64,000 nt of DNA from Minisyncoccota bacterium (GCA_031291825.1 JARLIG010000009.1:65281-129280); one strand, 5' to 3'; positions 6,811 to 47,886 are shown, counted from the stretch's first letter. Numbers and translations are program-made. Notes: generated from the sequence alone by a model not told the origin.

Positions 6811-9006
6811 ATGGAACTCGCCGATAAATTAGAAACAAAATTTCGTTTGGACATAAACCAGAAAAAAGCCTTGCAACGGCTGAAGATTTTTTCAGTGGCA
6901 GATTTACTATTTCACTTTCCTACCCGCTATAGTGACATGAGCGAGATAAAGAACATTGCCGAGCTAACGTCAGGAGATATGGCAACGGTTTATGGAAAAA
7001 TTTCAAAATTAAAAACCAAAAAGGCTTTTCGTTCAGGTCGGCCAATGGGTGAAGGCGAGATTGAAGACTTGTCAGGAAAAATAAAAATAACTTGGTTTAA
7101 CCAACCATACCTAGCCAAGATGATTCATGACGGTGAAAGTGTAAAATTAACAGGCAAAGTCACGCAAGGCAAAAATGGTATTTATTTAGCAAACCCAGAA
7201 TCTGAAAAATTACCTTACATGCCGATTGATTCACATGATACTCTTTTTACCAAAGATAGTATTTCAAATGAGGGATTTTCTTATCCAATTTATGTAGAAA
7301 CTCGCGGGATTACCTCAAAATGGTTCTATCACGCGCTAGACAAAGTCTTTAAGGAAAAAACATTAGATACTATTGAAGACTACATTCCATCTGAAATTTT
7401 AAATAAATATCATCTGCCTACATTAAAAACCGCGCTCATTTGGATTCATAAACCAAAAAATAAAAACGACGCCGAGTCAGCTAGAAAAAGATTCGCCTTT
7501 GAAGAAGTATTTTGTATTCAGTTGGAACGTCAGCACGACAAGATGGAATTCCGAAAGAATAAATCTTTTCAAATTAAACCAACCGAAGAAGATGTTAAAG
7601 AATTTTTACAAAGATTTCCCTTTGAACCAACTAATTCGCAAAAAAAATCCATTGAAACAATTTTGGCAGACATGGCAAGAAACTTTCCAATGTCTCGCCT
7701 CTTGGAAGGAGACGTTGGCTCCGGCAAAACTGCAGTGGCTGCGACCGCGGCTTACGTGGCAGTGCAACAACGACCGGAAGATAAGAATGGTAAAATACAA
7801 ACTTTTGGCAATTTACAAGTGGGCTATATGGCGCCGACAGAAATATTGGCCACCCAACACTTTGAATCTTTCATCCAATATTTTAGACATCTACCAATCA
7901 ACATCGGGCTCATTACTGGCAGTGGTTGCCGTAAATTCCCAGCAAAAACAATCGGCCCCGCCAAGGACGGGGTAAATTGGACCACTATTTCCCGTGCGCA
8001 ACTTTTAAAATGGGTCGCAAGTGGTGAAATTCCAATTTTAATCGGCACTCATGCTCTGATTCAAAAAACTGTTAAATTTAAAAATTTAGCTTTAGTGGTA
8101 ATAGATGAACAACACCGTTTCGGCACTGCTCAAAGAAGAAAACTGGTCCGCAAGGATAATATTGCCCCACACCTCCTTTCGATGACAGCTACACCCATTC
8201 CCCGCACACTCGCGCTAACCATCTATGGCGATTTGGATTTGTCTCTATTAAGTGAAATGCCTAAGGGAAGAAAAGAAATTATTACCGAAATAATTACTCA
8301 GAATAAAAGGCTGGAGACTTATGAGAAAATTCGCGCCGAGCTTCAAAATGGCCGACAGCTTTATGTCATCTGTCCGAGAATTTTTGAAGCTGATGAAGAA
8401 GCAACATCTACTCAACTTGAACTGAAATCTGTCACCTCTGAAGCTAAACGTTTAAAGAAAGAAGTTTTTCCAGAATATGAAATTGGAATTTTGCACAGCA
8501 AAATGAGCAAGGAGAAGAAAGAGCGTGTGATGGAAGATTTTACTTCAGGAAAAATAAATATTTTATGCGCCACGTCAGTGGTGGAAGTCGGAGTGAATGT
8601 ACCAAACGCCACCATCATCATCATCGAAGGTGCAGAACGTTTTGGACTCGCTCAACTGCATCAACTGCGCGGACGAGTCATCCGTAGTTCACACCAAGCT
8701 TATTGTTATATTTTTGCCGATGCCAAAAGTGAAAAGACGATTGCCAGATTAAAAGCTCTAAAGACTGCCAAGAATGGTTTTGAGTTAGCGGAGTTAGATT
8801 TGACCCTACGTGGCGCCGGAGAGCTCGGAGGCACGAAGCAATGGGGCATCACCGACCTCGGAATGGAAGCAATTAAAAATATAAAAATGGTGGAAGCCGC
8901 TCGCACTGAAGCAGTCGCTTTGATAGAAAAAGACCCAGAGCTTTTAAAATACCCTTTGCTAAAAGCTAAGGTAAAACAAAAGACATCTGAATTCCATTTC
9001 GAATAA
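6811..9006 (+). CDS. recG: ATP-dependent DNA helicase RecG
   Basis: Wedge domain followed by DEAH helicase motifs (GDVGSGKT, DEQHRFG, SMTATPIPRT, HQLRGRV); -10 TATAAT sits 6 nt before the ATG. Confidence 0.9.
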   Translation: MELADKLETKFRLDINQKKALQRLKIFSVADLLFHFPTRYSDMSEIKNIAELTSGDMATVYGKISKLKTKKAFRSGRPMGEGEIEDLSGKIKITWFNQPYLAKMIHDGESVKLTGKVTQGKNGIYLANPESEKLPYMPIDSHDTLFTKDSISNEGFSYPIYVETRGITSKWFYHALDKVFKEKTLDTIEDYIPSEILNKYHLPTLKTALIWIHKPKNKNDAESARKRFAFEEVFCIQLERQHDKMEFRKNKSFQIKPTEEDVKEFLQRFPFEPTNSQKKSIETILADMARNFPMSRLLEGDVGSGKTAVAATAAYVAVQQRPEDKNGKIQTFGNLQVGYMAPTEILATQHFESFIQYFRHLPINIGLITGSGCRKFPAKTIGPAKDGVNWTTISRAQLLKWVASGEIPILIGTHALIQKTVKFKNLALVVIDEQHRFGTAQRRKLVRKDNIAPHLLSMTATPIPRTLALTIYGDLDLSLLSEMPKGRKEIITEIITQNKRLETYEKIRAELQNGRQLYVICPRIFEADEEATSTQLELKSVTSEAKRLKKEVFPEYEIGILHSKMSKEKKERVMEDFTSGKINILCATSVVEVGVNVPNATIIIIEGAERFGLAQLHQLRGRVIRSSHQAYCYIFADAKSEKTIARLKALKTAKNGFELAELDLTLRGAGELGGTKQWGITDLGMEAIKNIKMVEAARTEAVALIEKDPELLKYPLLKAKVKQKTSEFHFE

Positions 9007-15588: not shown

Positions 15589-15647
15589 TCCAGTATATTA
15601 GCACAAAAAAACCGAAAGGTGAAATTCAGTTTATCTATAAATATCTG

Positions 15648-16036
15648 TGGAGATGGGGGAAATCGAATCCCCGTGCAGAAGGTAGTTGTAAAGAAGTCTA
15701 CATGCTTAGCGCGCTTTTTGGTTTAAATTAAAAAATTCTTAAACGTGCCAAATATTTTTTAATCGAGCTCTAAATTTTCGAGCGTATGTTCGAGCGGGCA
15801 ACGCCTTATCCCGATAATATTATGCCTCGTCTTATATATCGGAAGTCTATAAGAGAGACACCACCCTAGGCTTACGCGAAAGATGGAGCAAGAGCTAACG
15901 AGTTACCGAAGTAAGGCGAAAGCATTGCCGTGAAAGCTGATTTTGCAATTAGCTATTGAACGAATTTTTACGAGATTACGTTCATACTCGACATGCATCA
16001 ATGACAAATGGCCAACTGTCTATGCCTTGCATCCCC
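15648..16036 (-). ncRNA. ssrA: tmRNA (ssrA), one-piece
   Basis: Immediately downstream of smpB on the same strand; 5' GGGGATG pairs with 3' CATCTCC acceptor; T-arm GGGGATTCGATTTCCCC; internal tag-like reading frame ending ...LAPSFA-TAA. Confidence 0.65.
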
Positions 16037-16047
16037 ATATTTGTATT

Positions 16048-16494
16048 TCAACGTTCTTTGAAATCCCTGCGAATCTCGCGATCTGTGTCGCGCTTCTTGA
16101 TAGTTTCGCGTTTATCAAATTTTTTCTTGCCTTTGACCAGCGCGATTTCTACCTTGATTTTTCTATTTTTATTATACACTGAAATTGGCACTATTGTCAA
16201 ACTCTTGTTTTTCTCGCTTCCGGCGAGTTCGGCAATTTCTTTTTTGGTCAGTAAAAGTTTTCTGTTTTTAAGCGGGTCGTAATCTTTTGGAGAATTTTTG
16301 GGCTGATATGGAGGGATATTCGCGTTGATGAGAAATGCTTCACCACCACGTATAATGACAAAAGCTCCTTCGAGTGACATCTGCCCCGCACGCACGGACT
16401 TTACTTCCGTACCCAAAAGCTCAATACCTGTTTCGTATTTTTCTAAGATTTCGTAATTGAACCGCGCTTTGCGGTTTTCAGTATAATTTGCCAT
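16048..16494 (-). CDS. smpB: SsrA-binding protein SmpB
   Basis: NRKARFNYEILEKYEAGIEL...GAFVIIRGGEAFL canonical SmpB. Confidence 0.9.
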   Translation of the reverse strand: MANYTENRKARFNYEILEKYETGIELLGTEVKSVRAGQMSLEGAFVIIRGGEAFLINANIPPYQPKNSPKDYDPLKNRKLLLTKKEIAELAGSEKNKSLTIVPISVYNKNRKIKVEIALVKGKKKFDKRETIKKRDTDREIRRDFKER

Positions 16495-31437: not shown

Positions 31438-31989
31438 TTATTTACATATATAAGCTGGAGTAGAAATTTTCCATGCCCAACTAGAGAAAGATGTACCACA
31501 CTGAGTAACGGCACCACCCTCCCTGGCGGGGTCAATAAAAGTAGGATATTGGGCATACATGGAATTAGTCCAGCCAACATCCGAGATGGCGAGATCTAGA
31601 AGAGCATAATCGGTGCCATTAGATTTATAGAGATAACAACTAGTACTATTAGTTGCGTTCATAGTAGGGTCAGCGGGAAAAGTAGGCATATACGTAGAAA
31701 CAAGACCTGGAATAACTGCATTAGCAGCAAAACTACCCCAAGAAGCACATTGACTTTGCGAAGCCCCCCCAGTTGTTGGATATACTCCATAGTCATCATA
31801 GTAATTTTCTAACGCTGTTTGAATTTCTCTCATATCAGACAATCTTCTTGCGATGTTGGCCTTGAGACGTGCAGCATTGACACTAGATAAAACAATCGTG
31901 GAAAGTAGCCCAATAATGGCAACCACCACCAAAAGTTCAATTAAAGTGAAACCTCGATGAGTATTTTTATATGCTTTTAATAACTTCAT
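31438..31989 (-). CDS. type IV pilin (prepilin with class III signal peptide)
   Basis: MKLLKAYKNTHRG|FTLIELLVVVAIIGLLSTIV: leader ending in Gly, Phe+1, Glu+5, hydrophobic N-terminal helix; start chosen at the internal Met of the longer ORF. Confidence 0.7.
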   Translation of the reverse strand: MKLLKAYKNTHRGFTLIELLVVVAIIGLLSTIVLSSVNAARLKANIARRLSDMREIQTALENYYDDYGVYPTTGGASQSQCASWGSFAANAVIPGLVSTYMPTFPADPTMNATNSTSCYLYKSNGTDYALLDLAISDVGWTNSMYAQYPTFIDPAREGGAVTQCGTSFSSWAWKISTPAYICK

Positions 31990-31990
31990 C

Positions 31991-32251
31991 TTAATGAGGA
32001 TAGGTTGGGTTATTTTGATTAGTCGACTGTACGTTATTTGACACATCAAAGTGAATAAATAAAACAATAGAAACGACGACAATTAATATTATAAGTCCAA
32101 ATAAAATCCATTCTGCTTTTCGTGGGTCTTTTACTAATCCACCTGAATTTTTCATAATAAATAATATCACTGCAGGGGCAGCTGTCTCATCGTACAGTTT
32201 AATGGCTTTATATTTTTTAGTATTATTGGGAATTGGTGGTTGGTCACTCAT
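31991..32251 (-). CDS. small C-terminally membrane-anchored protein, MSDQPPIPNN family (paralog 2)
   Basis: 86 aa; identical N-terminus MSDQPPIPNN and homologous C-terminal TM region (AEWILFGLIILIVVVSIVLFIHF) to 32313-32726; stop is 1 nt from the pilin ATG. Confidence 0.5.
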   Translation of the reverse strand: MSDQPPIPNNTKKYKAIKLYDETAAPAVILFIMKNSGGLVKDPRKAEWILFGLIILIVVVSIVLFIHFDVSNNVQSTNQNNPTYPH

Positions 32252-32312
32252 GGTTATATTATATCTAAAATTATTTTAATGACAAGCACTAGAAGTATAA
32301 AATTTGCAATTA

Positions 32313-32726
32313 TTACGGAAAGGTTGAGTCAATTTTACTAGTTGGTGGTACAGGATTTGGGAGATTGAAGTGAATAAATAAAAACACAGAAAAAGCAACC
32401 ATTAATATTACAAACCCTAAGAGTATCGATTCTGCTTGTCTTTGAGTTTTAACTGCGCCTCTGGATAATTTCATAACCATTTTAACCATTCCTGGAGTAG
32501 CTTTTTCTTGATAAGCTGAGATAGCAGCTTGAGCGGATGTCGCCGTTAAAATATCAGTGTCAAAGCTGACTCCATCTATATCATTTTTTCTTGGAATTTC
32601 TGGAATTTTTGTAGTTGAAGCAGAAACTGCTTGTAAAGATTGTCCAGTGTGATATTTACTAGCTTCAAATTCTTTAAGAGCTGCGTCTATTTCAGCGTTA
32701 TTAGGAATAGGTGGTTGATCACTCAT
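32313..32726 (-). CDS. small C-terminally membrane-anchored protein, MSDQPPIPNN family (paralog 1)
   Basis: 137 aa; AESILLGFVILMVAFSVFLFIHF C-terminal TM; upstream region duplicated with paralog 2 (TGCTTGTCATTA...TATAAT-N6-ATG). Confidence 0.5.
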   Translation of the reverse strand: MSDQPPIPNNAEIDAALKEFEASKYHTGQSLQAVSASTTKIPEIPRKNDIDGVSFDTDILTATSAQAAISAYQEKATPGMVKMVMKLSRGAVKTQRQAESILLGFVILMVAFSVFLFIHFNLPNPVPPTSKIDSTFP

Positions 32727-36152: not shown

Positions 36153-36500
36153 CTATTTTTTCTTAGCATCGTCAGCGGCTGCAGTCGCACCTTTGGCGGC
36201 GGTTATTTCTGCTTCCTTTTTCTTCTGTTCGAGTTCTTTCTGCATCTTTCCTCCGTGCTTGATAAATTTCTTAGTTGGAGAAAATTCACCCAATCGGTGG
36301 CCCACCATATCTTCGGTGACTAAAACTTCGATGTGAACCTTGCCGTTATAAACGCCAAAAGTAAAACCGAGCATTTCTGGAGAAATAACAGCAGCTCTTT
36401 TCCAAGTCTTTACCATAGGAGTATTGAGCGGGTTTTTACCAGCAATCTTTGATAAGAGCCTCTCGTCAACGTTTAATCCTTTTTTAATACTTCGTGTCAT
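36153..36500 (-). CDS. rpsS: 30S ribosomal protein S19 (with Lys/Ala-rich C-terminal extension)
   Basis: MTRSIKKGLNVDERLLSKI...GHRLGEFSPTKKF canonical S19 core. Confidence 0.85.
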   Translation of the reverse strand: MTRSIKKGLNVDERLLSKIAGKNPLNTPMVKTWKRAAVISPEMLGFTFGVYNGKVHIEVLVTEDMVGHRLGEFSPTKKFIKHGGKMQKELEQKKKEAEITAAKGATAAADDAKKK

Positions 36501-36525
36501 AATAAAAAGCTCCTAACGAGCTTGG

Positions 36526-36557
36526 ATTTATACTAACAAATAAGGAAAAATTGTCAA
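36526..36557 (-). promoter_or_regulatory. strong sigma70-type promoter (TTGACA...TATAAAT) plus SD AGGAG driving rpsS immediately downstream of the island
   Basis: Gene-sense GTTGACAATTTTTCCTTATTTGTTAGTATAAATCCAAGCTCGTTAGGAGCTTTTTATTATG. Confidence 0.5.
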
Positions 36558-36629
36558 CTAGATTTTTAAAAACCATTATGTTAAAAAGCTCAAATCAAAA
36601 AACTACTTTTTTGGTTTAAATAAAAATAC

Positions 36630-36657
36630 GGGACTAGCAAAATTAGCTGCTAGTCCC
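36630..36657 (-). terminator. intrinsic terminator GGGACTAGCAGCTAATTTTGCTAGTCCC plus U-run (minus strand)
   Basis: Perfect 8-bp stem followed by GTATTTTTATTT in gene sense; preceded by a second GC-rich hairpin at ~36790-36830. Confidence 0.55.
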
Positions 36658-36844
36658 GTTGCTTTGGATGTGTAGAAGGATTCTCAGTTCTTCTACCGCA
36701 TGAGATAGCTCTACGGTGGAGACCAATCCAAAAGAACTATCCTGCTCGAAATATAGTATACAGAAAAAAATAAAGCAAATAAAAATCGCCCAGAAATACT
36801 GATGGCCGGCTCCGCGTGTTACGCGAAACCGGCCGTGTTGATGG

Positions 36845-37093
36845 TTACTTTTTGGTTCCTGCGATAACGCACAGGACCCCGAATCCAATCCCTATTGTCG
36901 CGATAATTCCGCGCGAAAGTAAGAGTTGCGTGCCAACGTGATGGTCAGGTCCCATCTGAATGAATACGTCGGCGAAGTGTGTGCCGGCGATGAGCGAGAC
37001 GATTCCAACGTACGGGCAAACTTTGTCCCAAACCCTATCCCAAAAATCGGTCTGGTTCTCGTTGGCGTTTTCGTCCAAAAATTCAAGAGGCAT
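36845..37093 (-). CDS. island sORF g6: small two-TM membrane protein (82 aa)
   Basis: SD GGAG 8 nt before ATG (ACGGAGAACAAGATG); MPLEFLDENANENQTDFWDRVWDKVCPYVGIVSLIAGTHF...GIIATIGIGFGVLCVIAGTKK. Confidence 0.35.
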   Translation of the reverse strand: MPLEFLDENANENQTDFWDRVWDKVCPYVGIVSLIAGTHFADVFIQMGPDHHVGTQLLLSRGIIATIGIGFGVLCVIAGTKK

Positions 37094-37142
37094 CTTGTTC
37101 TCCGTGTTTCTCGCGCACATCTGTACGCGTGTTGATTGCCGG

Positions 37143-37331
37143 TTAGTCGTGGCGATGACGTGATAAATACCATACACCAAAGGGAAGAACGATCGCAGAA
37201 ATCACTCGTAACCACATCTCGGAGCTAGGTCCAAAAACCAGAATTAACCCGGCAACGATGACTAACGTGAAAACGATCCCCGCTTGCGCTCCCTCATTCG
37301 TAGTATCTACATCTTGCCGCTGAGTTTGCAT
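37143..37331 (-). CDS. island sORF g5: small membrane protein (62 aa)
   Basis: SD AAGGAG 8 nt before ATG; own promoter TTGACT-N17-TATGTT (plus 37353-37381); two hydrophobic helices. Confidence 0.4.
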   Translation of the reverse strand: MQTQRQDVDTTNEGAQAGIVFTLVIVAGLILVFGPSSEMWLRVISAIVLPFGVWYLSRHRHD

Positions 37332-37393
37332 GGAATGTACTCCTTCCCCTATAACATATCACATAATATCCTAAAAGTCAAGTAAAAATTGGG

Positions 37394-37432
37394 CAAAAAA
37401 AACGGGCTTCCGGTGTGAACACAGAAGCCCGT
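37394..37432 (-). terminator. canonical intrinsic terminator ACGGGCTTCTGTGTTCACACCGGAAGCCCGUUUUUUUU (minus strand)
   Basis: 9-bp GC stem followed by eight T in gene sense. Confidence 0.6.
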
Positions 37433-37439
37433 TGGGAGA

Positions 37440-37560
37440 ATGGTGCAAATGGCGCAATCCATCCCCTGATAGGTGGTATCAAGGGAGCCAATGGGGCTAC
37501 AACCATCAAGGCATAGTCATTGAAGGGAGCCACCTCCTCAATACCACCGTCCGATAATAT
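37440..37560 (-). ncRNA. candidate small structured RNA (~160 nt transcript ending at the 37394-37432 terminator)
   Basis: No SD-led ORF. Long-range pairing GGUGGUAU...AUACCACC enclosing repeated GGGAGCCA boxes; between a promoter-like box (TTGTAT-N16-TATATT) and a canonical terminator. Confidence 0.25.
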
Positions 37561-37617
37561 AACATACTTATAAAAAAATACAAGTCCAGATAATAAAATT
37601 TGGGTAAACAAGGTAAT

Positions 37618-37646
37618 GGGGTTCGCCGACAGAATCGACGAACCCC
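37618..37646. repeat. GC-rich hairpin GGGGTTCGCCGACAGAATCGACGAACCCC (copy A); identical copy B at 37992-38020
   Basis: 29-nt direct repeat, 12-bp stem; each directly follows the stop codon of a minus-strand sORF. Confidence 0.7.
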
Positions 37647-37657
37647 ATTTTGAAGCC

Positions 37658-37837
37658 TTAGTAGCAGCCTCGATTGTCGTAGCGTATGAGCGCAGGACGC
37701 TCACGCGGAGCACGCACTGCAAGTTTGACGGCTTCGTACCCATCATCTGAGGAGTGAGCAACGAATGGCTCACCGCGACGGTAAGTAGAAGCGGAAACAA
37801 CGGTAAGTGTTTGCGGTACTTTTGTGTTCTTCTTCAT
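37658..37837 (-). CDS. island sORF g3 (59 aa, hydrophilic)
   Basis: SD AGGA 7 nt before ATG (CAGAGGACTTGAGATG); MKKNTKVPQTLTVVSASTYRRGEPFVAHSSDDGYEAVKLAVRAPRERPALIRYDNRGCY; stop abuts hairpin A. Confidence 0.35.
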   Translation of the reverse strand: MKKNTKVPQTLTVVSASTYRRGEPFVAHSSDDGYEAVKLAVRAPRERPALIRYDNRGCY

Positions 37838-37942
37838 CTCAAGTCCTCTGTGTGGATAGGTTGGCTTCCCATCCTCTGCTGTGAACATTGACATTGTGCT
37901 CTGCTTACATTGGACAAACAAAGCAGGAACTTCTTATCTTTA

Positions 37943-37970
37943 TTTATACCACTTAAAATAATTAACACAA
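37943..37970 (-). promoter_or_regulatory. island promoter box B: TTGTGTTAATTATTTTAAGTGGTATAAAT (minus strand)
   Basis: TTGTGT-N16-TATAAA; same box at 38311-38336 (TTGTGTTATTTTAATTAAGTGTTATAAC) and 38586-38612 (TTGTGTTATTTTGAAAAAGTGGTATAAA). Confidence 0.5.
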
Positions 37971-38034
37971 GGGGAAAGTAAACATGAAGATGGGGTTCGC
38001 CGACAGAATCGACGAACCCCAAATTTGATATCTG

Positions 38035-38244
38035 CTACACCCGATACATCAATCTGTCTCCCCTCTCTGCTGACAGAGGAGACGCGACCACCTTCGGCTC
38101 AACACCACGCCGTGCGTCGTCGAATGCCTTCGACAAACCTCCAGGCTGTTCTCCTTCTTGCCGAGATTGGTTGTATTTCAAAAGAGACTGCTTTGAAGAC
38201 TGGTTGCTCTGATGTCTTGATCCTGAAGCGCTTGATTTGCTCAT
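38035..38244 (-). CDS. island sORF g2 (69 aa, Ser/Gln-rich hydrophilic)
   Basis: SD AAGGAG 6 nt before ATG; MSKSSASGSRHQSNQSSKQSLLKYNQSRQEGEQPGG...; stop abuts hairpin B. Confidence 0.4.
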   Translation of the reverse strand: MSKSSASGSRHQSNQSSKQSLLKYNQSRQEGEQPGGLSKAFDDARRGVEPKVVASPLSAERGDRLMYRV

Positions 38245-38310
38245 CGTTTCTCCTTGAGGGGTTGTGTTTGTTAAACAACTTAAACTAAAAAGGTGCATAT
38301 CTTTTTTAGT

Positions 38311-38336
38311 TATAACACTTAATTAAAATAACACAA
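38311..38336 (-). promoter_or_regulatory. island promoter box C
   Basis: TTGTGTTATTTTAATTAAGTGTTATAAC ~60 nt upstream of the g2 SD. Confidence 0.45.
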
Positions 38337-38367
38337 GGTAAAATTTTTAAATTGAGTAGACATAGCG

Positions 38368-38393
38368 AGGGCGCCGAGTTGGTCTCGGCGCCC
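38368..38393. repeat. GC-rich perfect hairpin GGGCGCCGAG-TTGGTC-CTCGGCGCCC
   Basis: 10-bp perfect stem directly after the g1 stop. Confidence 0.6.
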
Positions 38394-38407
38394 TTGAATC
38401 TTAAATC

Positions 38408-38545
38408 TCATTCTTTGTCGTCGAAACGCCGACGGCGGCGCGGCTGACGGTTGCGAGGACGGTTTGGCAACTGCTGCGCGTTACGGGTAACCGCTCTGGT
38501 AACCCACTTCGGAGCTGATAGCTCCGCACGACGAGTTCTCGTCAT
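38408..38545 (-). CDS. island sORF g1 (45 aa, extremely Arg-rich)
   Basis: Hand-translated: SD GGAG 7 nt before ATG; MTRTRRAELSAPKWVTRAVTRNAQQLPNRPRNRQPRRRRRFDDKE-TGA. Not in the ORF track (shorter than 60 aa). Confidence 0.35.
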   Translation of the reverse strand: MTRTRRAELSAPKWVTRAVTRNAQQLPNRPRNRQPRRRRRFDDKE

Positions 38546-38585
38546 CTTTTTTCTCCAAATGGAAAAATGAACATCTATGGAGATA

Positions 38586-38612
38586 TTTATACCACTTTTT
38601 CAAAATAACACA
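38586..38612 (-). promoter_or_regulatory. island promoter box D
   Basis: TTGTGTTATTTTGAAAAAGTGGTATAAA ~40 nt upstream of the g1 ATG. Confidence 0.45.
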
Positions 38613-38633
38613 ATAGCAAAAGTGTATAAAGCA

Positions 38634-38674
38634 AAAGACGTCGGACATCTGTTGCTACAGGTGTCCGACGTCTT
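38634..38674. repeat. REP-like perfect palindrome AAGACGTCGGACA-loop-TGTCCGACGTCTT immediately after the rplB stop
   Basis: 13-bp perfect stem; member of the GACGTyGGACA family. Confidence 0.6.
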
Positions 38675-38695
38675 TTGCTTAAGTATTTTTATTTT

Positions 38696-39535
38696 TTATT
38701 TATTCTTCCCAGTCTTACGGCGAGAAACGATAAACACATTAGAGTATTTCTTTGGACCACGAGTTTTGCGTCCACCAGTAACCTTACCCCACATGGTCTT
38801 AGGACGTTTGGTTCCGCGACCTTGGCGGCCCTCACCTCCTCCGTATGGATGGTCAACTGGATTCATCGCCGTGCCTCGAACAGTTGGACGAATTCCTTTC
38901 CAACGACTGCGTCCAGCTTTACCATAATTTTCCAAATGATGTTCTTCATTAGAAACAGTACCGACACACGCCCAACATTTTTCATTTATTTTTCTGATTT
39001 CCGTTGAAGGCATTTTCAAGTTTGTATATCCATCAGCATTTGCGACAACTTGTGCAAAGATTCCTGCAGAACGTCCAATCTTCGCACCACCCATTGGCTT
39101 AATTTCAACATTATAAACAAATGTTCCAACTGGAATAAACTGCAAAGGTAAACGATTGCCTGGCTTCAATTCTGCTTTCTCGGAAACGATAAATGAATCA
39201 CCAGGCTTTACAGACTTTGGCAAAACCACATATCTTTTTTCTCCGTCCTTGTAAACAGCAAGTCCAATGAAGGCTGAACGATTTGGGTCATATTCAACAG
39301 ATGTAATTTTTGCAGGAATATCTTTTTTGTTGTAAATAAAATCAACTTCGCGGAAAAGACGCTTATGACCAGAACCTTTGTGTCGCATCGTGATACGACC
39401 TTGACTGTTGCGGCCGACAGCGCGCTTGAAACCATAAGTGAGCGACTTGGTTGGTGTCGTCTTCGTCAAGACACCACGGTAAGTCACGTTGGTCATCTGT
39501 CTTCTTGATTTACTTGTTGGTTTGTATGTTTTCAT
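38696..39535 (-). CDS. rplB: 50S ribosomal protein L2
   Basis: 279 aa, canonical L2 (GRNSQGRITMRHKGSGHKR, MNPVDHPYGGGEG). Confidence 0.9.
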   Translation of the reverse strand: MKTYKPTSKSRRQMTNVTYRGVLTKTTPTKSLTYGFKRAVGRNSQGRITMRHKGSGHKRLFREVDFIYNKKDIPAKITSVEYDPNRSAFIGLAVYKDGEKRYVVLPKSVKPGDSFIVSEKAELKPGNRLPLQFIPVGTFVYNVEIKPMGGAKIGRSAGIFAQVVANADGYTNLKMPSTEIRKINEKCWACVGTVSNEEHHLENYGKAGRSRWKGIRPTVRGTAMNPVDHPYGGGEGRQGRGTKRPKTMWGKVTGGRKTRGPKKYSNVFIVSRRKTGKNK

Positions 39536-41105: not shown

Positions 41106-41537
41106 TTACATCATCTTAACGTCAATATCGACTCCGGAAGGCAAAGTTAAATTAGTCAGAGCCTCCACGGTCTTTGCATTTGGATTTATTATGTCAATCA
41201 ATCGCTTGTGCACTCTTATCTCAAATTGTTCTCGTGTGTTTTTGTAAATAAAAGCGGAACGATTAACGGTATATTTTTTTATTTCAGTCGGTAATGGAAC
41301 CGGACCGACAATATTTGCATCGTAACGGGTAGCAGTATCCATGATTTGTTTAACAGAAGCATCCAAAATCTTACTCTCGTAAGCACGAACTCGGATACGA
41401 AGCACAATTTTTCCATCTGTTGCAGTCTTCTCTTTTTTAAGAGAGGCCTTGGTAGTTTTAGCTACCTTTGCAACCTTTGGTGTAGTAGCTTTCACCGTCT
41501 TTGGCTTTTTTATTTTTGTTTCTGTTTCTGTTGTCAT
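41106..41537 (-). CDS. rpsJ: 30S ribosomal protein S10 (with Lys/Thr-rich N-terminal extension)
   Basis: C-terminal ~100 aa is canonical S10 (IRIRVRAYESKILD...HKRLIDI). Confidence 0.85.
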   Translation of the reverse strand: MTTETETKIKKPKTVKATTPKVAKVAKTTKASLKKEKTATDGKIVLRIRVRAYESKILDASVKQIMDTATRYDANIVGPVPLPTEIKKYTVNRSAFIYKNTREQFEIRVHKRLIDIINPNAKTVEALTNLTLPSGVDIDVKMM

Positions 41538-42949: not shown

Positions 42950-43621
42950 ATGAATATGGAATCTAAAGAACCTAAAAATACACCAGAAAAACCGAAAGTC
43001 ACAGACGAGAGAAGTGAGCTCCTCGCAGAAGTATTTAAAAGGTATCATAAAGATTTGATTAAATGGTGTATCGCTAGACTAAACAAGCTAACAATAAAAG
43101 GTAGTCGTATCTCTAATAATCTAAAAAGTGATGCGGAAGAAATCGTCGCGGATGTCTATAAAGTATTATTGACTGATAAAAATCCCATAGACCTAAATCG
43201 TACTGATGCTGAAATAGGAAAATTTTTAAATATTGTCTTAGATCAAGCAGTTATTCATTATGTTAGAAAAATCACAGCTCAGAAAAGATTTCCTAGGGGT
43301 GGTTTCGTGTCGACCGAAGAAATAACTGAGGAAAATGACGAGGAAGAATTGCTTGAAAAACTTAAAGAGTATTTTACTCAAAAGACAGACGACACAATAG
43401 AAGATGGGCGGTGGCCTATGATAAAAGATGCTTTGGTGGAATTAGAAAAACAAGATAAACAACAAGTGGACATGATTAGAGCTTTGTATCAAGAAGGACA
43501 TACCTTGGAAGAAATAGGAAAAAGTTATGGTTTTTCAAGAGAAAATGCAAGACAAAGAATTAAAAGGGGTCTTAATAAGATAAAATATCATATTATTCAA
43601 TACAAAAAACCGCTCAGTTGA
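42950..43621 (+). CDS. sigma-70 family (ECF-like) RNA polymerase sigma factor, between tuf and fusA on the opposite strand
   Basis: Region-2-like LAEVFKRYHKDLIKWC and region-4 HTH LEEIGKSYGFSRENARQRIKRGLNKI; promoter-like TTGTCA-N16-TAAACT upstream. Confidence 0.5.
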   Translation: MNMESKEPKNTPEKPKVTDERSELLAEVFKRYHKDLIKWCIARLNKLTIKGSRISNNLKSDAEEIVADVYKVLLTDKNPIDLNRTDAEIGKFLNIVLDQAVIHYVRKITAQKRFPRGGFVSTEEITEENDEEELLEKLKEYFTQKTDDTIEDGRWPMIKDALVELEKQDKQQVDMIRALYQEGHTLEEIGKSYGFSRENARQRIKRGLNKIKYHIIQYKKPLS

Positions 43622-45898: not shown

Positions 45899-47209
45899 TT
45901 ATTTATTTAATACCGCGCGAGTCATTGCTCCAGCCACTCCATCACCCTTTAATCCATTGGCAATTTGAAACTTACTGAGAGCGATTTGAGTCTTTAATCC
46001 AAACTTACCATCAGCTGTTCCAACACTATAACCAGCATTATTTAAAAATGTTTGTAACTCCACAACTTCATTTCCCGAAGAACCTCTCTTGAGTAATTGA
46101 GTAAATTGAAAAGACGTTGTTGTGGTGGATGTTGGAGTAGTGGTATTACTGTTGCAAGGCAAGCCAGTGGTAACACTAAAACTATTTGTTCCAAGACAAC
46201 CAGGGAGTGGAGCTGTGGGAGTTCCAGTTGGAGTCGTTGCGGGTGTGGTAGTTGGAGTAGTGGTAGGAGTAACGACTGGAGCTGGCATAGTCATCGCACC
46301 AGCGCTGGTAGATTGAGGTGATGTATCCCCCGTAGCATCATAGGATGCTACAGTGAAAGAATATATTGTTCCAGGGGTAAGTGAAGTTACTGTGTAATAA
46401 GTATTTGCGGTAGTTCCAATTTGAGCTCCAGCTTGATAAACATCATAGCCCGTAATTCCAAAACTATCAGTGGGAGCAGTCCAAGTTAAATCAATTTGAG
46501 AAGATGATACTGGAGTCGCTTGCAAGGATGCTGGAGATAGCGGAATTGTTGTGGCTAATGTGGTAGAACCTGGAGTAGTTACACTGACTGGAGTTGATTG
46601 TCCTGAATTATTTCCGAGTGTATCGCGAGCATCAACAGTAAAATAATAAGTCGTAGAAGCCAGCAAGCCATTTATATTGTAATAAGTATTTGTCGTTGTG
46701 CCTATCTGCACTCCGTTTTGAAAAATATCATAACCAGCTATGGCGATACTACTAGTTGACGCCGTCCAAGATAAACTATATTGAGATGGTGAAATGGTGT
46801 TGATGGTTAAAGTAGGTACAGTGGGAGGTAAAAGAACTGTAGTGGTTGCACTAGCGCTTGTTGATTGTCCTGATGTGTTTCCAGCTGCATCATAAGCTGA
46901 AACAGTAAAAGAATAAGTAGTTGACGCACTTAAACCAGAAACATAATAGGAATTGTTTGTGGTCGTTGTAATCTCATTTCCATTTTCATATACATTGTAT
47001 CCAGCAACTCCCGTGTCATCCGTCGAAGCCATCCAAGACAGATTTACTTGCGAAGAAGAAACTGGAATCGCAATAAGTTGTGTTGGAGTTGTTGGAGGAG
47101 TCGTGTCGGCTCCAGCGAAAACATTACGGTTTCCAAGTATACTAAAAGAAACAATTAGCATTAAAGCAAAAAGCTTTTGCAAATTTATTTTTGATATCAT
47201 ATTAAACAT
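45899..47209 (-). CDS. secreted protein with three fibronectin-III-like repeats, Thr/Pro linker and C-terminal peptidoglycan-binding (PG_binding_1-like) domain
   Basis: Signal peptide; thrice-repeated ~90-aa unit (PVSSSQ..L.W.A.TD..G..GY.VY..G..IGTT.N..Y...L...T.Y.F.V.A.D..GN.S.QS); C-terminus GSSGNEVVELQTFLNNAGY...GKFGLKTQIALSKFQ. Confidence 0.6.
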   Translation of the reverse strand: MFNMISKINLQKLFALMLIVSFSILGNRNVFAGADTTPPTTPTQLIAIPVSSSQVNLSWMASTDDTGVAGYNVYENGNEITTTTNNSYYVSGLSASTTYSFTVSAYDAAGNTSGQSTSASATTTVLLPPTVPTLTINTISPSQYSLSWTASTSSIAIAGYDIFQNGVQIGTTTNTYYNINGLLASTTYYFTVDARDTLGNNSGQSTPVSVTTPGSTTLATTIPLSPASLQATPVSSSQIDLTWTAPTDSFGITGYDVYQAGAQIGTTANTYYTVTSLTPGTIYSFTVASYDATGDTSPQSTSAGAMTMPAPVVTPTTTPTTTPATTPTGTPTAPLPGCLGTNSFSVTTGLPCNSNTTTPTSTTTTSFQFTQLLKRGSSGNEVVELQTFLNNAGYSVGTADGKFGLKTQIALSKFQIANGLKGDGVAGAMTRAVLNK

Positions 47210-47245
47210 ATTTTACCATTAGCGATGTATTTTTAGCAAACAAAA

Positions 47246-47506
47246 CTATTTATAAATTTCATGACCTCCAATGTCGGCAAACAAGACTTCATTTTTAGAA
47301 ATGAAGCGAAAAGCTATCCTAAATTTATAGTTTACTGAAAAACCAAAATATTCCTTGAATTTACCATGGAGCTTATGAACTTCTAAAGTTTCATGATTTG
47401 TTCTATCTTTAAATAAATCAATTTTGTCTAAAACATCCTTCTGTAGACCATTCTCCAGTTTTTTAAATTTGCGGACAAAAAATGGAGAATAAATAATTTC
47501 AATCAT
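47246..47506 (-). CDS. type II toxin, RelE/ParE superfamily
   Basis: 86 aa; C-terminus YKFRIAFRFISKNEVLFADIGGHEIYK matches the RelE/ParE core; directly downstream of the RHH antitoxin. Confidence 0.6.
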   Translation of the reverse strand: MIEIIYSPFFVRKFKKLENGLQKDVLDKIDLFKDRTNHETLEVHKLHGKFKEYFGFSVNYKFRIAFRFISKNEVLFADIGGHEIYK

Positions 47507-47510
47507 TTTA

Positions 47511-47729
47511 TTAGAATTTTTTTGCTAATTCTCTCAGGTCTCCTCTTAGGCCTTTCCCTTCTGCAATTTCTCTTTCTGATTGAAGAATATTCTGAACTGC
47601 TTCGTTTTCTTGATATTCTCTTAAGGCACGTCGAACAACATCAGCTTTGTTCGCGCCTTTTCCGTCCTTAATCATTCTTTCTATGAATTTTTCCAAGTCC
47701 CCCGAAATGGGTACAGATAATGTGGTCAT
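47511..47729 (-). CDS. ribbon-helix-helix antitoxin (ParD-like)
   Basis: 72 aa; MTTLSVPISGDLEKFIERMIKDGKGANKADVVRRALREY matches ParD/RHH. Confidence 0.55.
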   Translation of the reverse strand: MTTLSVPISGDLEKFIERMIKDGKGANKADVVRRALREYQENEAVQNILQSEREIAEGKGLRGDLRELAKKF

Positions 47730-47804
47730 GTTTTTTATAAATTATATGATAATGTAATATTATAATATCATATAGTGAAGAAAAAGTGAAGTCAAGATAA
47801 ACAA

Positions 47805-47826
47805 AAAATCCCTTTGGGGATTTTTA
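47805..47826. terminator. intrinsic terminator AAAAATCCCTTTGGGGATTTTT downstream of rpsG
   Basis: GC hairpin plus T-run; followed by REP-like palindrome 47841-47884. Confidence 0.55.
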
Positions 47827-47886
47827 AAATAAAAAGTTTATTCTAGATGTTGGACATCTGCAAAGCAGGTGTACAACATCAGAAAA

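Follow-up and report, generated by a model that had tools for sequence, protein, structure and literature searches.

What occupies the space between rplB and rpsS in the S10 operon of this Minisyncoccota bacterium (GCA_031291825.1), and how did it come to be there? Within the window, i.e. the whole 64,000-nt stretch of DNA that was analysed (JARLIG010000009.1:65281-129280), the two ribosomal protein (r-protein) genes lie on the minus strand, which is the operon strand, and are separated by 2195 nt; the remaining r-protein junctions of the window measure 1–67 nt. The insert of about 2.1 kb that a first-pass annotation, made from the sequence alone, had placed at this junction is therefore real in size. 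It contains three copies of a promoter box, two identical 31-nt hairpins, five small open reading frames (sORFs, 45–82 aa), each led by a Shine-Dalgarno (SD) sequence, and two structured promoter-to-terminator units without an open reading frame (ORF). We consider it likely, with a probability of roughly 0.7, that this is a strain-variable island of moron-like, self-contained small-gene cassettes, situated in a clade-wide hotspot of gene turnover, at the boundary between terminator and promoter where the S10 operon is split.

The junction was compared in 80 loci of GTDB species representatives retrieved with RplB, the closest of which belong to Candidatus Nomurabacteria. Where rpsS was found, its distance from rplB ranged from 72 nt to 5.3 kb, and in further loci no rpsS was present within approximately 6 kb downstream of rplB. 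The gap exceeded 200 nt in 39 of the 62 measurable loci, as compared with 0–2 loci for the other r-protein junctions, with the exception of rpsJ-rplC (14/69). Expansion was observed in 48/55 loci whose RplB was at least 62% identical to that of the window (class-level Paceibacteria) versus 3/18 of the more distant ones (CPR, i.e. Candidate Phyla Radiation, and Firmicutes). The cargo is nearly all unrelated between genomes: 141 of the 165 gap ORFs were singletons, and the recognizable families comprise prokaryotic diacylglycerol kinase DagK (6 genomes), MazF (2), HicA, Fic, PurE, PurC, PyrD, PyrF, ornithine decarboxylase and a histidine kinase. An occupied junction, implicitly treated as unique in the first-pass annotation, is thus the usual state among these relatives, with ordinary accessory genes of many kinds.

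Hotspots located between core genes, including ones that lack mobile elements and recombine at the flanking core genes, have been described previously (PMC5635113; Oliveira, Touchon, Cury & Rocha 2017). The rplB-rpsS junction, one core interval holding many different accessory genes, corresponds to such hotspots of horizontal gene transfer: gain and loss are concentrated in a single interval, the cargo is diverse and mostly strain-specific, and no mobile element is recognizable; the flanking core genes may, in addition, be sites of homologous recombination. It differs from them in its position inside the S10 operon, normally among the most rigid of gene orders, in spanning a class-level clade of Patescibacteria and not a single species, and in that the cargo of this particular genome consists only of tiny genes and RNAs. 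In literature searches we found no described rplB-rpsS hotspot in CPR.

The sole segment of the gap that could be aligned with the GTDB relatives is formed by the last 60–100 nt before rpsS. In the window this right flank (36501-36602, minus strand) comprises an AT-rich upstream region, the predicted rpsS promoter (TTGACA, 36557-36552; TGT-TAGTAT, 36535-36530) and a leader hairpin, AAGCTCG-TTAG-GAGCTT, followed by a U-run (36507-36523). The promoter consensus in the relatives is TTGACw-N14-TGyTAnTAT, and promoter and leader hairpin are kept in 15 relatives regardless of the gap content. “Empty” gaps of 72–132 nt (L007, L011, L012 and L022, most clearly L007) were read as an rplB terminator, the rpsS promoter and the leader hairpin. 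Since promoter and leader are present whatever fills the gap, and the empty sites carry a terminator as well, the comparison indicates that the split of the operon and the restart promoter are ancestral to the clade and were not made by the island. A restart promoter for rpsS had been correctly recognized in the first-pass annotation, but its implied connection with the island was not supported.

The leader hairpin itself (CCAAGCTCG-NNNN-GAGCTTTTT plus U-run, found also in L004–L025) shows a few compensatory changes, e.g. in L021, L012 and L025, and gave no Rfam match. Its appearance is that of an attenuator in the leader, or of an element stabilizing the 5' end of the rpsS-rplV-rpsC... transcript. 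In Escherichia coli the leader subject to L4-mediated attenuation precedes rpsJ. The two arrangements are alike in that a conserved hairpin with a U-run follows closely on the promoter of an r-protein unit; here, however, it stands before rpsS rather than rpsJ, it has no counterpart in Rfam, and attenuation in the rpsS leader is conjectural.

These observations are consistent with the following model. The S10 operon of Nomurabacteria and their relatives in the Paceibacteria would be ancestrally split after rplB, with a terminator following rplB and a separate promoter and leader hairpin serving rpsS. The space between this terminator and the rpsS promoter would be transcriptionally insulated, so that insertions may be tolerated there and accumulate. 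In the present genome the slot would be filled by seven transcription units, each short and self-contained: three cassettes of moron-like type that combine a shared promoter box, a leader, an SD-led ORF (g1, g2 or g3) and a hairpin rich in GC at the 3' end; two structured RNAs without an ORF, both with a promoter-like site and a canonical terminator of their own; and one bicistronic unit for two small two-helix membrane proteins (g5 and g6). Terminators on both sides (T0 upstream and T7 downstream) would shield the r-protein genes from transcription of the island. This GC-rich island, common only to a few close relatives, appears to move between lineages through homologous recombination in the conserved flanks.

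The composition of the gap sets it apart from its surroundings. The GC content of the island is 45.2%, as opposed to 38.5% for the rest of the window, which confirms that it is richer in GC, although the initial estimate of one-half versus one-third was overstated. No other 2.1-kb stretch of the window is as rich in GC (z 3.6) or deviates as strongly in tetranucleotides (z 5.1), and the GC content at third codon positions (GC3) of its sORFs is 0.46–0.59 versus 0.32–0.41 for the host genes; the suspected compositional foreignness was thus borne out by all three measures. Other intergenic regions of the window contain 27–34% GC. The Logan assemblies L001–L003 were 99.96–100% identical to the window from rplB to H2 and from sRNA1 to rpsS, and because these independent assemblies agree with the window, the island is not an artefact of a single assembly.

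As read along the operon strand (all coordinates in this part refer to the minus strand), the island begins directly after rplB with T0 (38629-38680), a palindrome with 24-bp arms, 96% complementary, with A- and T-tracts and the core GTCGGACA...TGTCCGAC, which is the predicted terminator of the upstream half-operon. The first cassette consists of the promoter box P1 (38586-38613; TTGTGT-N16-TGG-TATAAA, an extended −10 arrangement found as a pattern match), g1 (38408-38545; 45 aa, Arg-rich, with GGAG 7 nt upstream) and H1 (38368-38394), a GC-rich hairpin without a U-tract (AGGGCGCCGAG-ACCAA-CTCGGCGCCCT) that lies 13 nt past the g1 stop codon. The second comprises P2 (38310-38336), a variant box carrying GTGTTATAAC in place of GTGGTATAAA, g2 (38035-38244; 69 aa, hydrophilic, SD sequence AAGGAG) and the 31-nt hairpin H2 (37991-38021; UGGGGUUCGUCGA-UUCUG-UCGGCGAACCCCA), 13 nt past the g2 stop, in which a G-U wobble, as read from the sequence, makes the better hairpin on the operon-strand RNA. 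The third is composed of P3 (37944-37970, again a pattern match), g3 (37658-37837; 59 aa, SD sequence GAGG) and H3 (37617-37647), an identical second copy of H2 placed 10 nt past the g3 stop.

Downstream of these cassettes, the promoter-like site P4 (37556-37583; TTGTAT-N16-TGT-TATATT) precedes the first ORF-less unit, designated small RNA (sRNA) candidate sRNA1. P5 (37353-37381; TTGACT-17-TATGTT with TG), a putative promoter of host-like type, precedes g5 (37143-37331; 62 aa, SD sequence AAGGAG) and g6 (36845-37093; 82 aa, SD sequence GGAG), both of which encode proteins with two hydrophobic helices, in keeping with the two tiny membrane proteins noted from the outset. The hairpin H6 (36804-36834; GGCCGG...CCGGCC) lies 10 nt past the g6 stop, and the second ORF-less unit, sRNA2, is the last before the right flank.

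The promoter box, TTGTGTTA-N-GTGKTATAA, occurs in three copies on the minus strand, all of them in the island, with none elsewhere in the 64 kb and 0 expected by chance; both copies of the H2/H3 hairpin are likewise confined to the island within the window. A canonical appearance is limited to T0, T4 (the terminator of sRNA1) and T7 (that of sRNA2), whereas H1–H3 and H6 are devoid of a clean U-tract. Promoter activity is presumed from consensus, and the function of the terminators is similarly putative. The overall anatomy given by the first-pass annotation (promoter–sORF–hairpin cassettes, a candidate sRNA, two small membrane proteins and an rpsS restart promoter) was correct, with some adjustment of detail: three boxes are indeed present, but the second one, with GTGTTATAAC rather than GTGGTATAAA, is not uniform with the others; the two hairpins are identical, but as 31-mers (38021-37991 and 37647-37617) and not 29-mers; and the hairpins begin 10–13 nt after the stop codons instead of right on them. 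The possibility that cassettes 1–3 are tandem duplicates was rejected, as they share promoter and hairpin modules only and their ORF bodies are unrelated.

Are the sORFs genuine genes? A six-frame scan for start/ORF combinations of at least 25 aa, with an ATG and an SD sequence at 4–11 nt as the criterion, yielded 6 passing combinations out of 79, all on the operon strand; five of these are g1, g2, g3, g5 and g6, whose translation is predicted on this basis. Searches of Pfam, PHROGs, PADLOC and NCBIfam with the five proteins returned nothing significant, PDB sequence searches with g1, g2 and g3 gave no match, and a word-indexed protein search recovered only g6 itself and nothing for g2 and g3. 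Profiles of the island proteins run against all ORFs of the 80 GTDB loci were also without matches. In an exhaustive HMMER search of 1.84 billion representatives, g6 had only two homologues, P0002 (E 4e-13) and P0003 (E 4e-5), and the genes of both are situated directly upstream of rpsS.

The contigs encoding P0002 (L130/L135 and the near-identical L131, L132, L136 and L137; six assemblies) were found to carry an orthologous island. That of L130 is collinear with the window, in the order T0-like palindrome, P1, g1', H1, P2, g2', H2, P3, g3', hairpin, P4, sRNA, P5, g5', g6', H6, sRNA2' and rpsS promoter, and has in addition a further sRNA-like unit, two additional GTCGGACA palindromes and a segment of 260 nt that contains a basic sORF of 56 aa. 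In L133/L134 only a P4-like promoter and sRNA, then P5, g6'' and H6, precede rpsS. P4 thus has equivalents in both L130 and L133, and P5 is kept upstream of the g6 homologues in both. The sORFs, boxes and hairpins claimed initially are thus preserved in the orthologous island of close relatives, contrary to what would be expected of random spacer.

Comparison with L130 revealed very different degrees of conservation among the sORFs. For g2, 37 of 69 residues are identical (z 18.6), mismatches at the three codon positions number 18/22/40, and the proportions of nonsynonymous (pN) and synonymous (pS) differences are 0.28 and 0.75, respectively; its conserved motifs are GG(L/V)SK(A/V)FDDARRG and the C-terminal RGDRLMYRV. 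The corresponding values for g6 are 40/77 identical residues (z 18.5), 25/23/46 mismatches, pN 0.32 and pS 0.72. As synonymous divergence (dS) is saturated, the pN/pS ratio was not relied on for these two genes. The pattern of substitutions, which is of coding type, indicates that g2 and g6 are protein-coding and under purifying selection. The AF2 model of g6 is a helical hairpin of moderate confidence (pLDDT 72). The other three evolve in a nearly neutral manner (pN 0.45–0.54, no third-position excess): g1 is similar to its 47-aa positional orthologue in the N-terminal part only (alignment z 3.8), g3 matches a diverged 65-aa counterpart at 19/53 residues (z 5.3), with the start and the C-terminal ...APR...DNR kept in frame, and g5 is weakly similar to a 70-aa positional orthologue (18/59, z 5.1) and has no equivalent in L133.

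These data bear on the simplest alternative, namely that the gap is a non-coding spacer, or an extended regulatory leader of rpsS, and that the sORFs are chance frames. Lengths of 45–82 codons are unremarkable at 45% GC, equally long ORFs exist in other frames, and g1, g3 and g5 display little codon-position signal. Nevertheless, the combination of SD sequence and ATG occurs on the operon strand only and essentially just at these ORFs, g2 and g6 have a third-position excess with pN well below pS, homologues of g6 recur upstream of rpsS, and the canonical T7 together with the conserved promoter parts the island from rpsS. This explanation is already largely refuted, and we regard it as extremely improbable.

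It may also be asked whether the products serve the ribosome, i.e. whether g1 and similar basic sORFs encode lineage-specific small proteins that work with it. An Arg-rich protein of 45 aa encoded between two r-protein genes would suit such a role, and unrelated basic SD-led sORFs are found in the same slot in L005, L008, L010 and L130. On the other hand, homology of the sORFs between species is lacking and none of them was found in the 80 relatives; terminators appear to insulate them from the r-protein transcripts, and their promoters are of a separate type. Arg-richness is expected of GC-rich DNA, and in other genomes the slot contains metabolic enzymes and toxins just as well. A ribosomal function is accordingly very unlikely, and our best guess is that the products are strain-specific accessory small proteins, embedded in the envelope in the case of g5/g6 and basic or hydrophilic in that of g1–g3.

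The ORF-less units were analysed with respect to folding and conservation. sRNA1 (37393-37552, minus strand) is a candidate RNA of approximately 160 nt with three hairpins, the last of which is the canonical terminator T4 (37402-37433 plus U-run), and contains no SD-led ORF. Its minimum free energy is −63.9 kcal/mol, with a z-score of −3.6 relative to shuffled sequences, and the promoter-to-terminator unit singled out originally (37552-37393) therefore folds better than chance. The body of sRNA1 could not be aligned with the unit at the same position in L130; P4 and the terminator tail are kept. The second candidate, sRNA2, lies with a promoter-like upstream segment at 36620-36785 (minus strand), is about 130 nt long, and ends, after three hairpins, in the canonical terminator T7 (36628-36659). 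The unit 36752-36620 has a minimum free energy of −48.4 kcal/mol (z −5.5 versus shuffles). The elements before rpsS had previously been described as terminators, which holds for T7 but falls short for this segment, a structured unit in its own right. Its sequence is 82% identical to that of L130, and 9 compensatory base pairs preserve all three hairpins, although the covariation support is limited because only two sequences were compared.

Neither candidate belongs to a described RNA family: with Rfam 15 the island gave no match at the gathering score and only chance-level matches at E up to 10, and nothing was detected by Rfam in the gaps of 11 relatives' loci. A 5' stem motif, GATAGTYC...GRACTATC, is shared by four sRNA-like units (L130 1766-1912, L130 2543-2692, L133 30-188 and window 36618-36756), in which it lies shortly after promoter-like sites; alignment of the four revealed no other common feature, which was insufficient for a family model. 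The shared stem suggests that these units may form a small family of related RNAs within the islands.

The proximity of structured RNAs to genes of hydrophobic peptides recalls type I toxin-antitoxin loci or other small toxins regulated by sRNAs, in which g5/g6 would be membrane-damaging and restrained by their neighbours. Both proteins are small, hydrophobic and two-helix, sRNA-like structured units flank the g5/g6 region in all three versions of the island, and MazF, HicA and Fic occupy the same slot in relatives. The sRNA candidates, however, share the strand of g5/g6 and lie outside both genes. The predicted energies of sRNA1 and sRNA2 duplexes with the translation-initiation regions of g1–g6 and rpsS were within the range of shuffles (z −1.6 to +1.6), and this lack of complementarity speaks against the toxin-antitoxin-like module proposed at first. 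Moreover, g6 is under purifying selection and occurs in L133 without g5 and without sRNA2, and no PADLOC or Pfam toxin family was matched. We judge a locus of this kind improbable. The suggestion of a defence-like module fared no better, as PADLOC gave no matches in the island; in the gaps of the relatives, defence matches were of candidate level only.

The regulatory modules are conserved to an unexpected degree. Between the window and L130 the flanking rpsS has a pS of 0.45 (pN 0.02), which gives a measure of neutral divergence. Against this, P1 is identical at 33/35 positions (within a 36-nt box, 38585-38620), P2 at 28/32, P3 at 25/29 and the rpsS promoter at 55/60; H1 is identical at 24/27 positions (within the 29-nt segment 38365-38393), and H2 with its 13-nt tail at 43/44, H2 itself being invariant (31/31). 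By this comparison the promoter boxes and H1/H2 are more conserved than neutral (synonymous rpsS) sites. T0 is only 63% identical, the hairpin of T7 is kept through compensatory changes (part of the 9 pairs of sRNA2), and the stem base of H6 is kept in L130 and L133 whereas its interior is variable. Since T0 and T7 have drifted, H1 and H2 seem to be constrained in sequence and not in structure alone. At the position of H3, L130 carries a different hairpin, which indicates that H3 arose by duplication or conversion in the lineage of the window.

Conserved palindromes following small ORFs raise the question whether the island is a cassette array driven by a recombinase, or what is left of an integrated mobile element of integron-like, REP/RAYT-like or prophage-derived type; the hairpins would then be recombination sites at cassette ends. 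Chromosomal integron arrays, such as that of the Vibrio VCR (Vibrio cholerae repeat), are tandem series of small ORFs, most of them orphans, with a conserved palindrome after each one, and the island has the same layout. Further points in favour of such an array are the duplication of H2 within the island and its identity in a diverged orthologous island, the foreign composition, the gain or loss of whole modules between the window and L130, and the occurrence of the island-specific GTCGGACA palindrome at module boundaries, once in the window (GTCGGACA...TGTCCGAC at 38640-38669) and three times in L130 (19-49, 621-651 and 1695-1724). Outside the island family, this core produced a single 18-nt match among the fetched loci (L006 3972-3989).

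Integron cassettes, however, are generally promoterless and expressed from Pc, carry attC at their 3' ends and are adjacent to intI and attI. In the island neither intI nor attI was seen, no RYYYAAC...GTTRRRY pair of attC cores with a spacing of 30–130 nt was found on either strand, the stems are short and perfect (27–31 nt), and each cassette has a promoter of its own. No ORF of the island is large enough for an integrase or transposase. Beyond it, the neighbouring genes that were scanned individually are not recombinases, and the top 25 of 84 families listed for the other window ORFs are all housekeeping. Repetitive extragenic palindromic (REP) elements exist in many copies dispersed throughout the genome, together with an associated RAYT transposase. 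The GC-rich palindromes of the island resemble those of REP elements or bacterial interspersed mosaic elements (BIME) in being conserved in sequence, located just 3' of stop codons, present in more than one copy and possibly stabilizing the upstream mRNA; they differ in that, within the 64 kb of this genome, their copies are restricted to the island, and the same is true of the promoter box.

A phage origin was equally without support. The whole island had no match in phage DNA, the profiles of g6 and g2 and the H2 hairpin had none in viral contigs, and the promoter box had three isolated matches there, with nothing related around them; similarity to PHROGs was also lacking. In a metagenome scan the box was found in 43 contigs, one match each and with no further similarity to the island, which we judged to be chance or generic promoter-like occurrences. 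The collinearity of the island with its orthologue, in turn, suggests vertical descent combined with homologous exchange. Taken together, a recombinase-driven array or element remnant is unlikely, and the degenerate integrated element considered in the first-pass annotation was not supported: the island holds no integrase-sized ORF, no attC cores were found, and phage or viral similarity is lacking.

A more speculative reading concerns the conserved hairpin–promoter junctions (H1/H2 with tail, then the TTGTnT-N16-TGGTATAAA box). These might form a sequence-specific scaffold for a small-gene “expression slot”, either read by a dedicated protein or RNase, or serving as portable homology arms by which cargo (sORFs or sRNAs) could be swapped without a recombinase. 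This would explain why H2 is identical at 31/31 positions across genomes in spite of drifting terminators, and why divergence is far greater in the cargo bodies than in the sequences flanking them; if true, the rplB-rpsS gap of Paceibacteria would be a dedicated landing pad. We put this forward only tentatively and consider it rather doubtful.

Exchange of the island is suggested by one pair of sequences in particular. L132 and L130 differ at a single position over approximately 1380 nt of the island (sRNA1 through sRNA2), whereas their rpsS genes are 15% diverged, a value equal to that between species with empty gaps or entirely different cargo, and there is a sharp breakpoint at the rpsS promoter; L132 is one short metagenomic contig and may be a chimera. 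Conversely, the window and L130 are closer in rpsS (89%) and much more diverged in their islands. The histories of island and flank are thus decoupled, and the island was probably exchanged by homologous recombination in the conserved flanks.

The view of the island as a set of moron-like cassettes in a turnover hotspot rests on an analogy with phage genomes, in which morons are defined as independent promoter–gene–terminator units inserted between genes of conserved operons (PMC3594210). As judged from sequence consensus, each cassette here has its own predicted promoter and 3' hairpin, the cassettes separate two neighbouring genes of a conserved operon, and the base composition deviates from the surroundings (GC z 3.6, tetranucleotide z 5.1), as in morons. 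The differences are that the setting is a bacterial chromosome with r-protein flanks and no phage or PHROG similarity, and that one promoter module is common to three cassettes, two of which also have an identical hairpin.

Several points weigh against this interpretation. Promoters, terminators and translation are consensus-based predictions. The weakly conserved g1, g3 and g5 could be marginal or non-functional ORFs. The sequence-level conservation of H2 and the boxes exceeds what simple terminator or promoter function would call for, which hints at an extra layer outside the model. The evidence for recombination comes from a single 1.7-kb metagenomic contig (L132), which could be a chimeric assembly, and the high GC content is evidence of compositional deviation, not of a donor.

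The adjacency of rplB and rpsS is treated as near-universal, yet a class-level group of Patescibacteria has made it the main variable slot of its r-protein cluster, and the slot may be a useful marker of strain-level diversity. There are also practical consequences. In four contigs of the 80 relatives (L017, L018, L030 and L073) the sequence breaks off no more than about 4 nt from the end of rplB, and at least L028, L037, L041 and L064 end inside the junction, as do the Logan contigs L001 and L002 inside the island. This suggests that variable or repeated sequence at the junction fragments assemblies of the r-protein block, and such breaks can split the syntenic block used for binning checks and concatenated r-protein trees. 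In addition, the slot is a natural catalogue of what is exchanged among episymbionts with tiny genomes (toxin-antitoxin genes, nucleotide-biosynthesis enzymes and orphan small proteins). The small proteins and the two structured RNAs represent new families without annotation, and the compact insulated cassettes, with their unusually conserved regulatory modules, are a source of defined candidate promoters and 3' elements for a phylum that is uncultivated and lacks genetic tools.

Regarding the core flanks, rplB (uL2; 38696-39535, minus strand) is a 279-aa ORF whose identical Logan product matched Pfam Ribosomal_L2_N/C, and which is 53–95% identical to the RplB proteins of the 80 relatives. rpsS (uS19; 36153-36500, minus strand), identified by tblastn to relatives, has an Ala/Lys-rich C-terminal extension of the kind that is typical of Parcubacteria; an exact-sequence look-up of RpsS returned no recorded match. 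CPR-specific extensions of r-proteins have been described (PMC9297842), and a Lys/Thr/Ala-rich N-terminal extension of approximately 40 aa in uS10 (41106-41537, minus strand) is, together with that of uS19, consistent with that report.

Some minor observations concern the contents of the slot in the relatives. A Pfam scan of 68 gap proteins detected one HicA_toxin, two MazF/PemK and one Fic/Doc, and in L009 a HicA-like ORF (8067-8300) is adjacent to a HicB-like one (7720-8061), as judged by eye from the sequences. Unrelated basic, hydrophilic SD-led sORFs of 54–83 aa are present in GC-enriched gaps of L005 (6951-7492), L008 (6914-7078), L010 (6991-7158) and L130 (357-527). In other Nomurabacteria the basic gap sORFs often stand behind TGGTATAAT-type promoters; the island promoters are distinct, of the TTGTnT / TGGTATAAA type. 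An ECF (extracytoplasmic function)-like sigma factor (223 aa; Sigma70_r4, Sigma70_ECF) is encoded on the opposite strand between fusA and tuf (42950-43618, plus strand), about 4 kb from the island.

Irregularities were also noted elsewhere among the r-protein genes of the window and of the relatives. The rpsJ-rplC junction is a second, weaker variable site in L004–L083 (above 200 nt in 14/69 loci, up to 2.5 kb), and measures 4 nt in the window. The str operon is interrupted between rpsG and fusA (45902-47886, minus strand) by a gene for a 436-aa fibronectin-III-repeat/peptidoglycan-binding protein and a 677-nt spacer of 30% GC. Between rplE and rpsH (31441-32480, minus strand) there are genes for a 214-aa pilin-like protein with an N-terminal methylation motif and an SD-led hydrophobic sORF of 55 aa (32313-32480). 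The transfer-messenger RNA gene (Rfam, 115 bits) adjoins smpB (15645-16494, minus strand), which is an ordinary arrangement.

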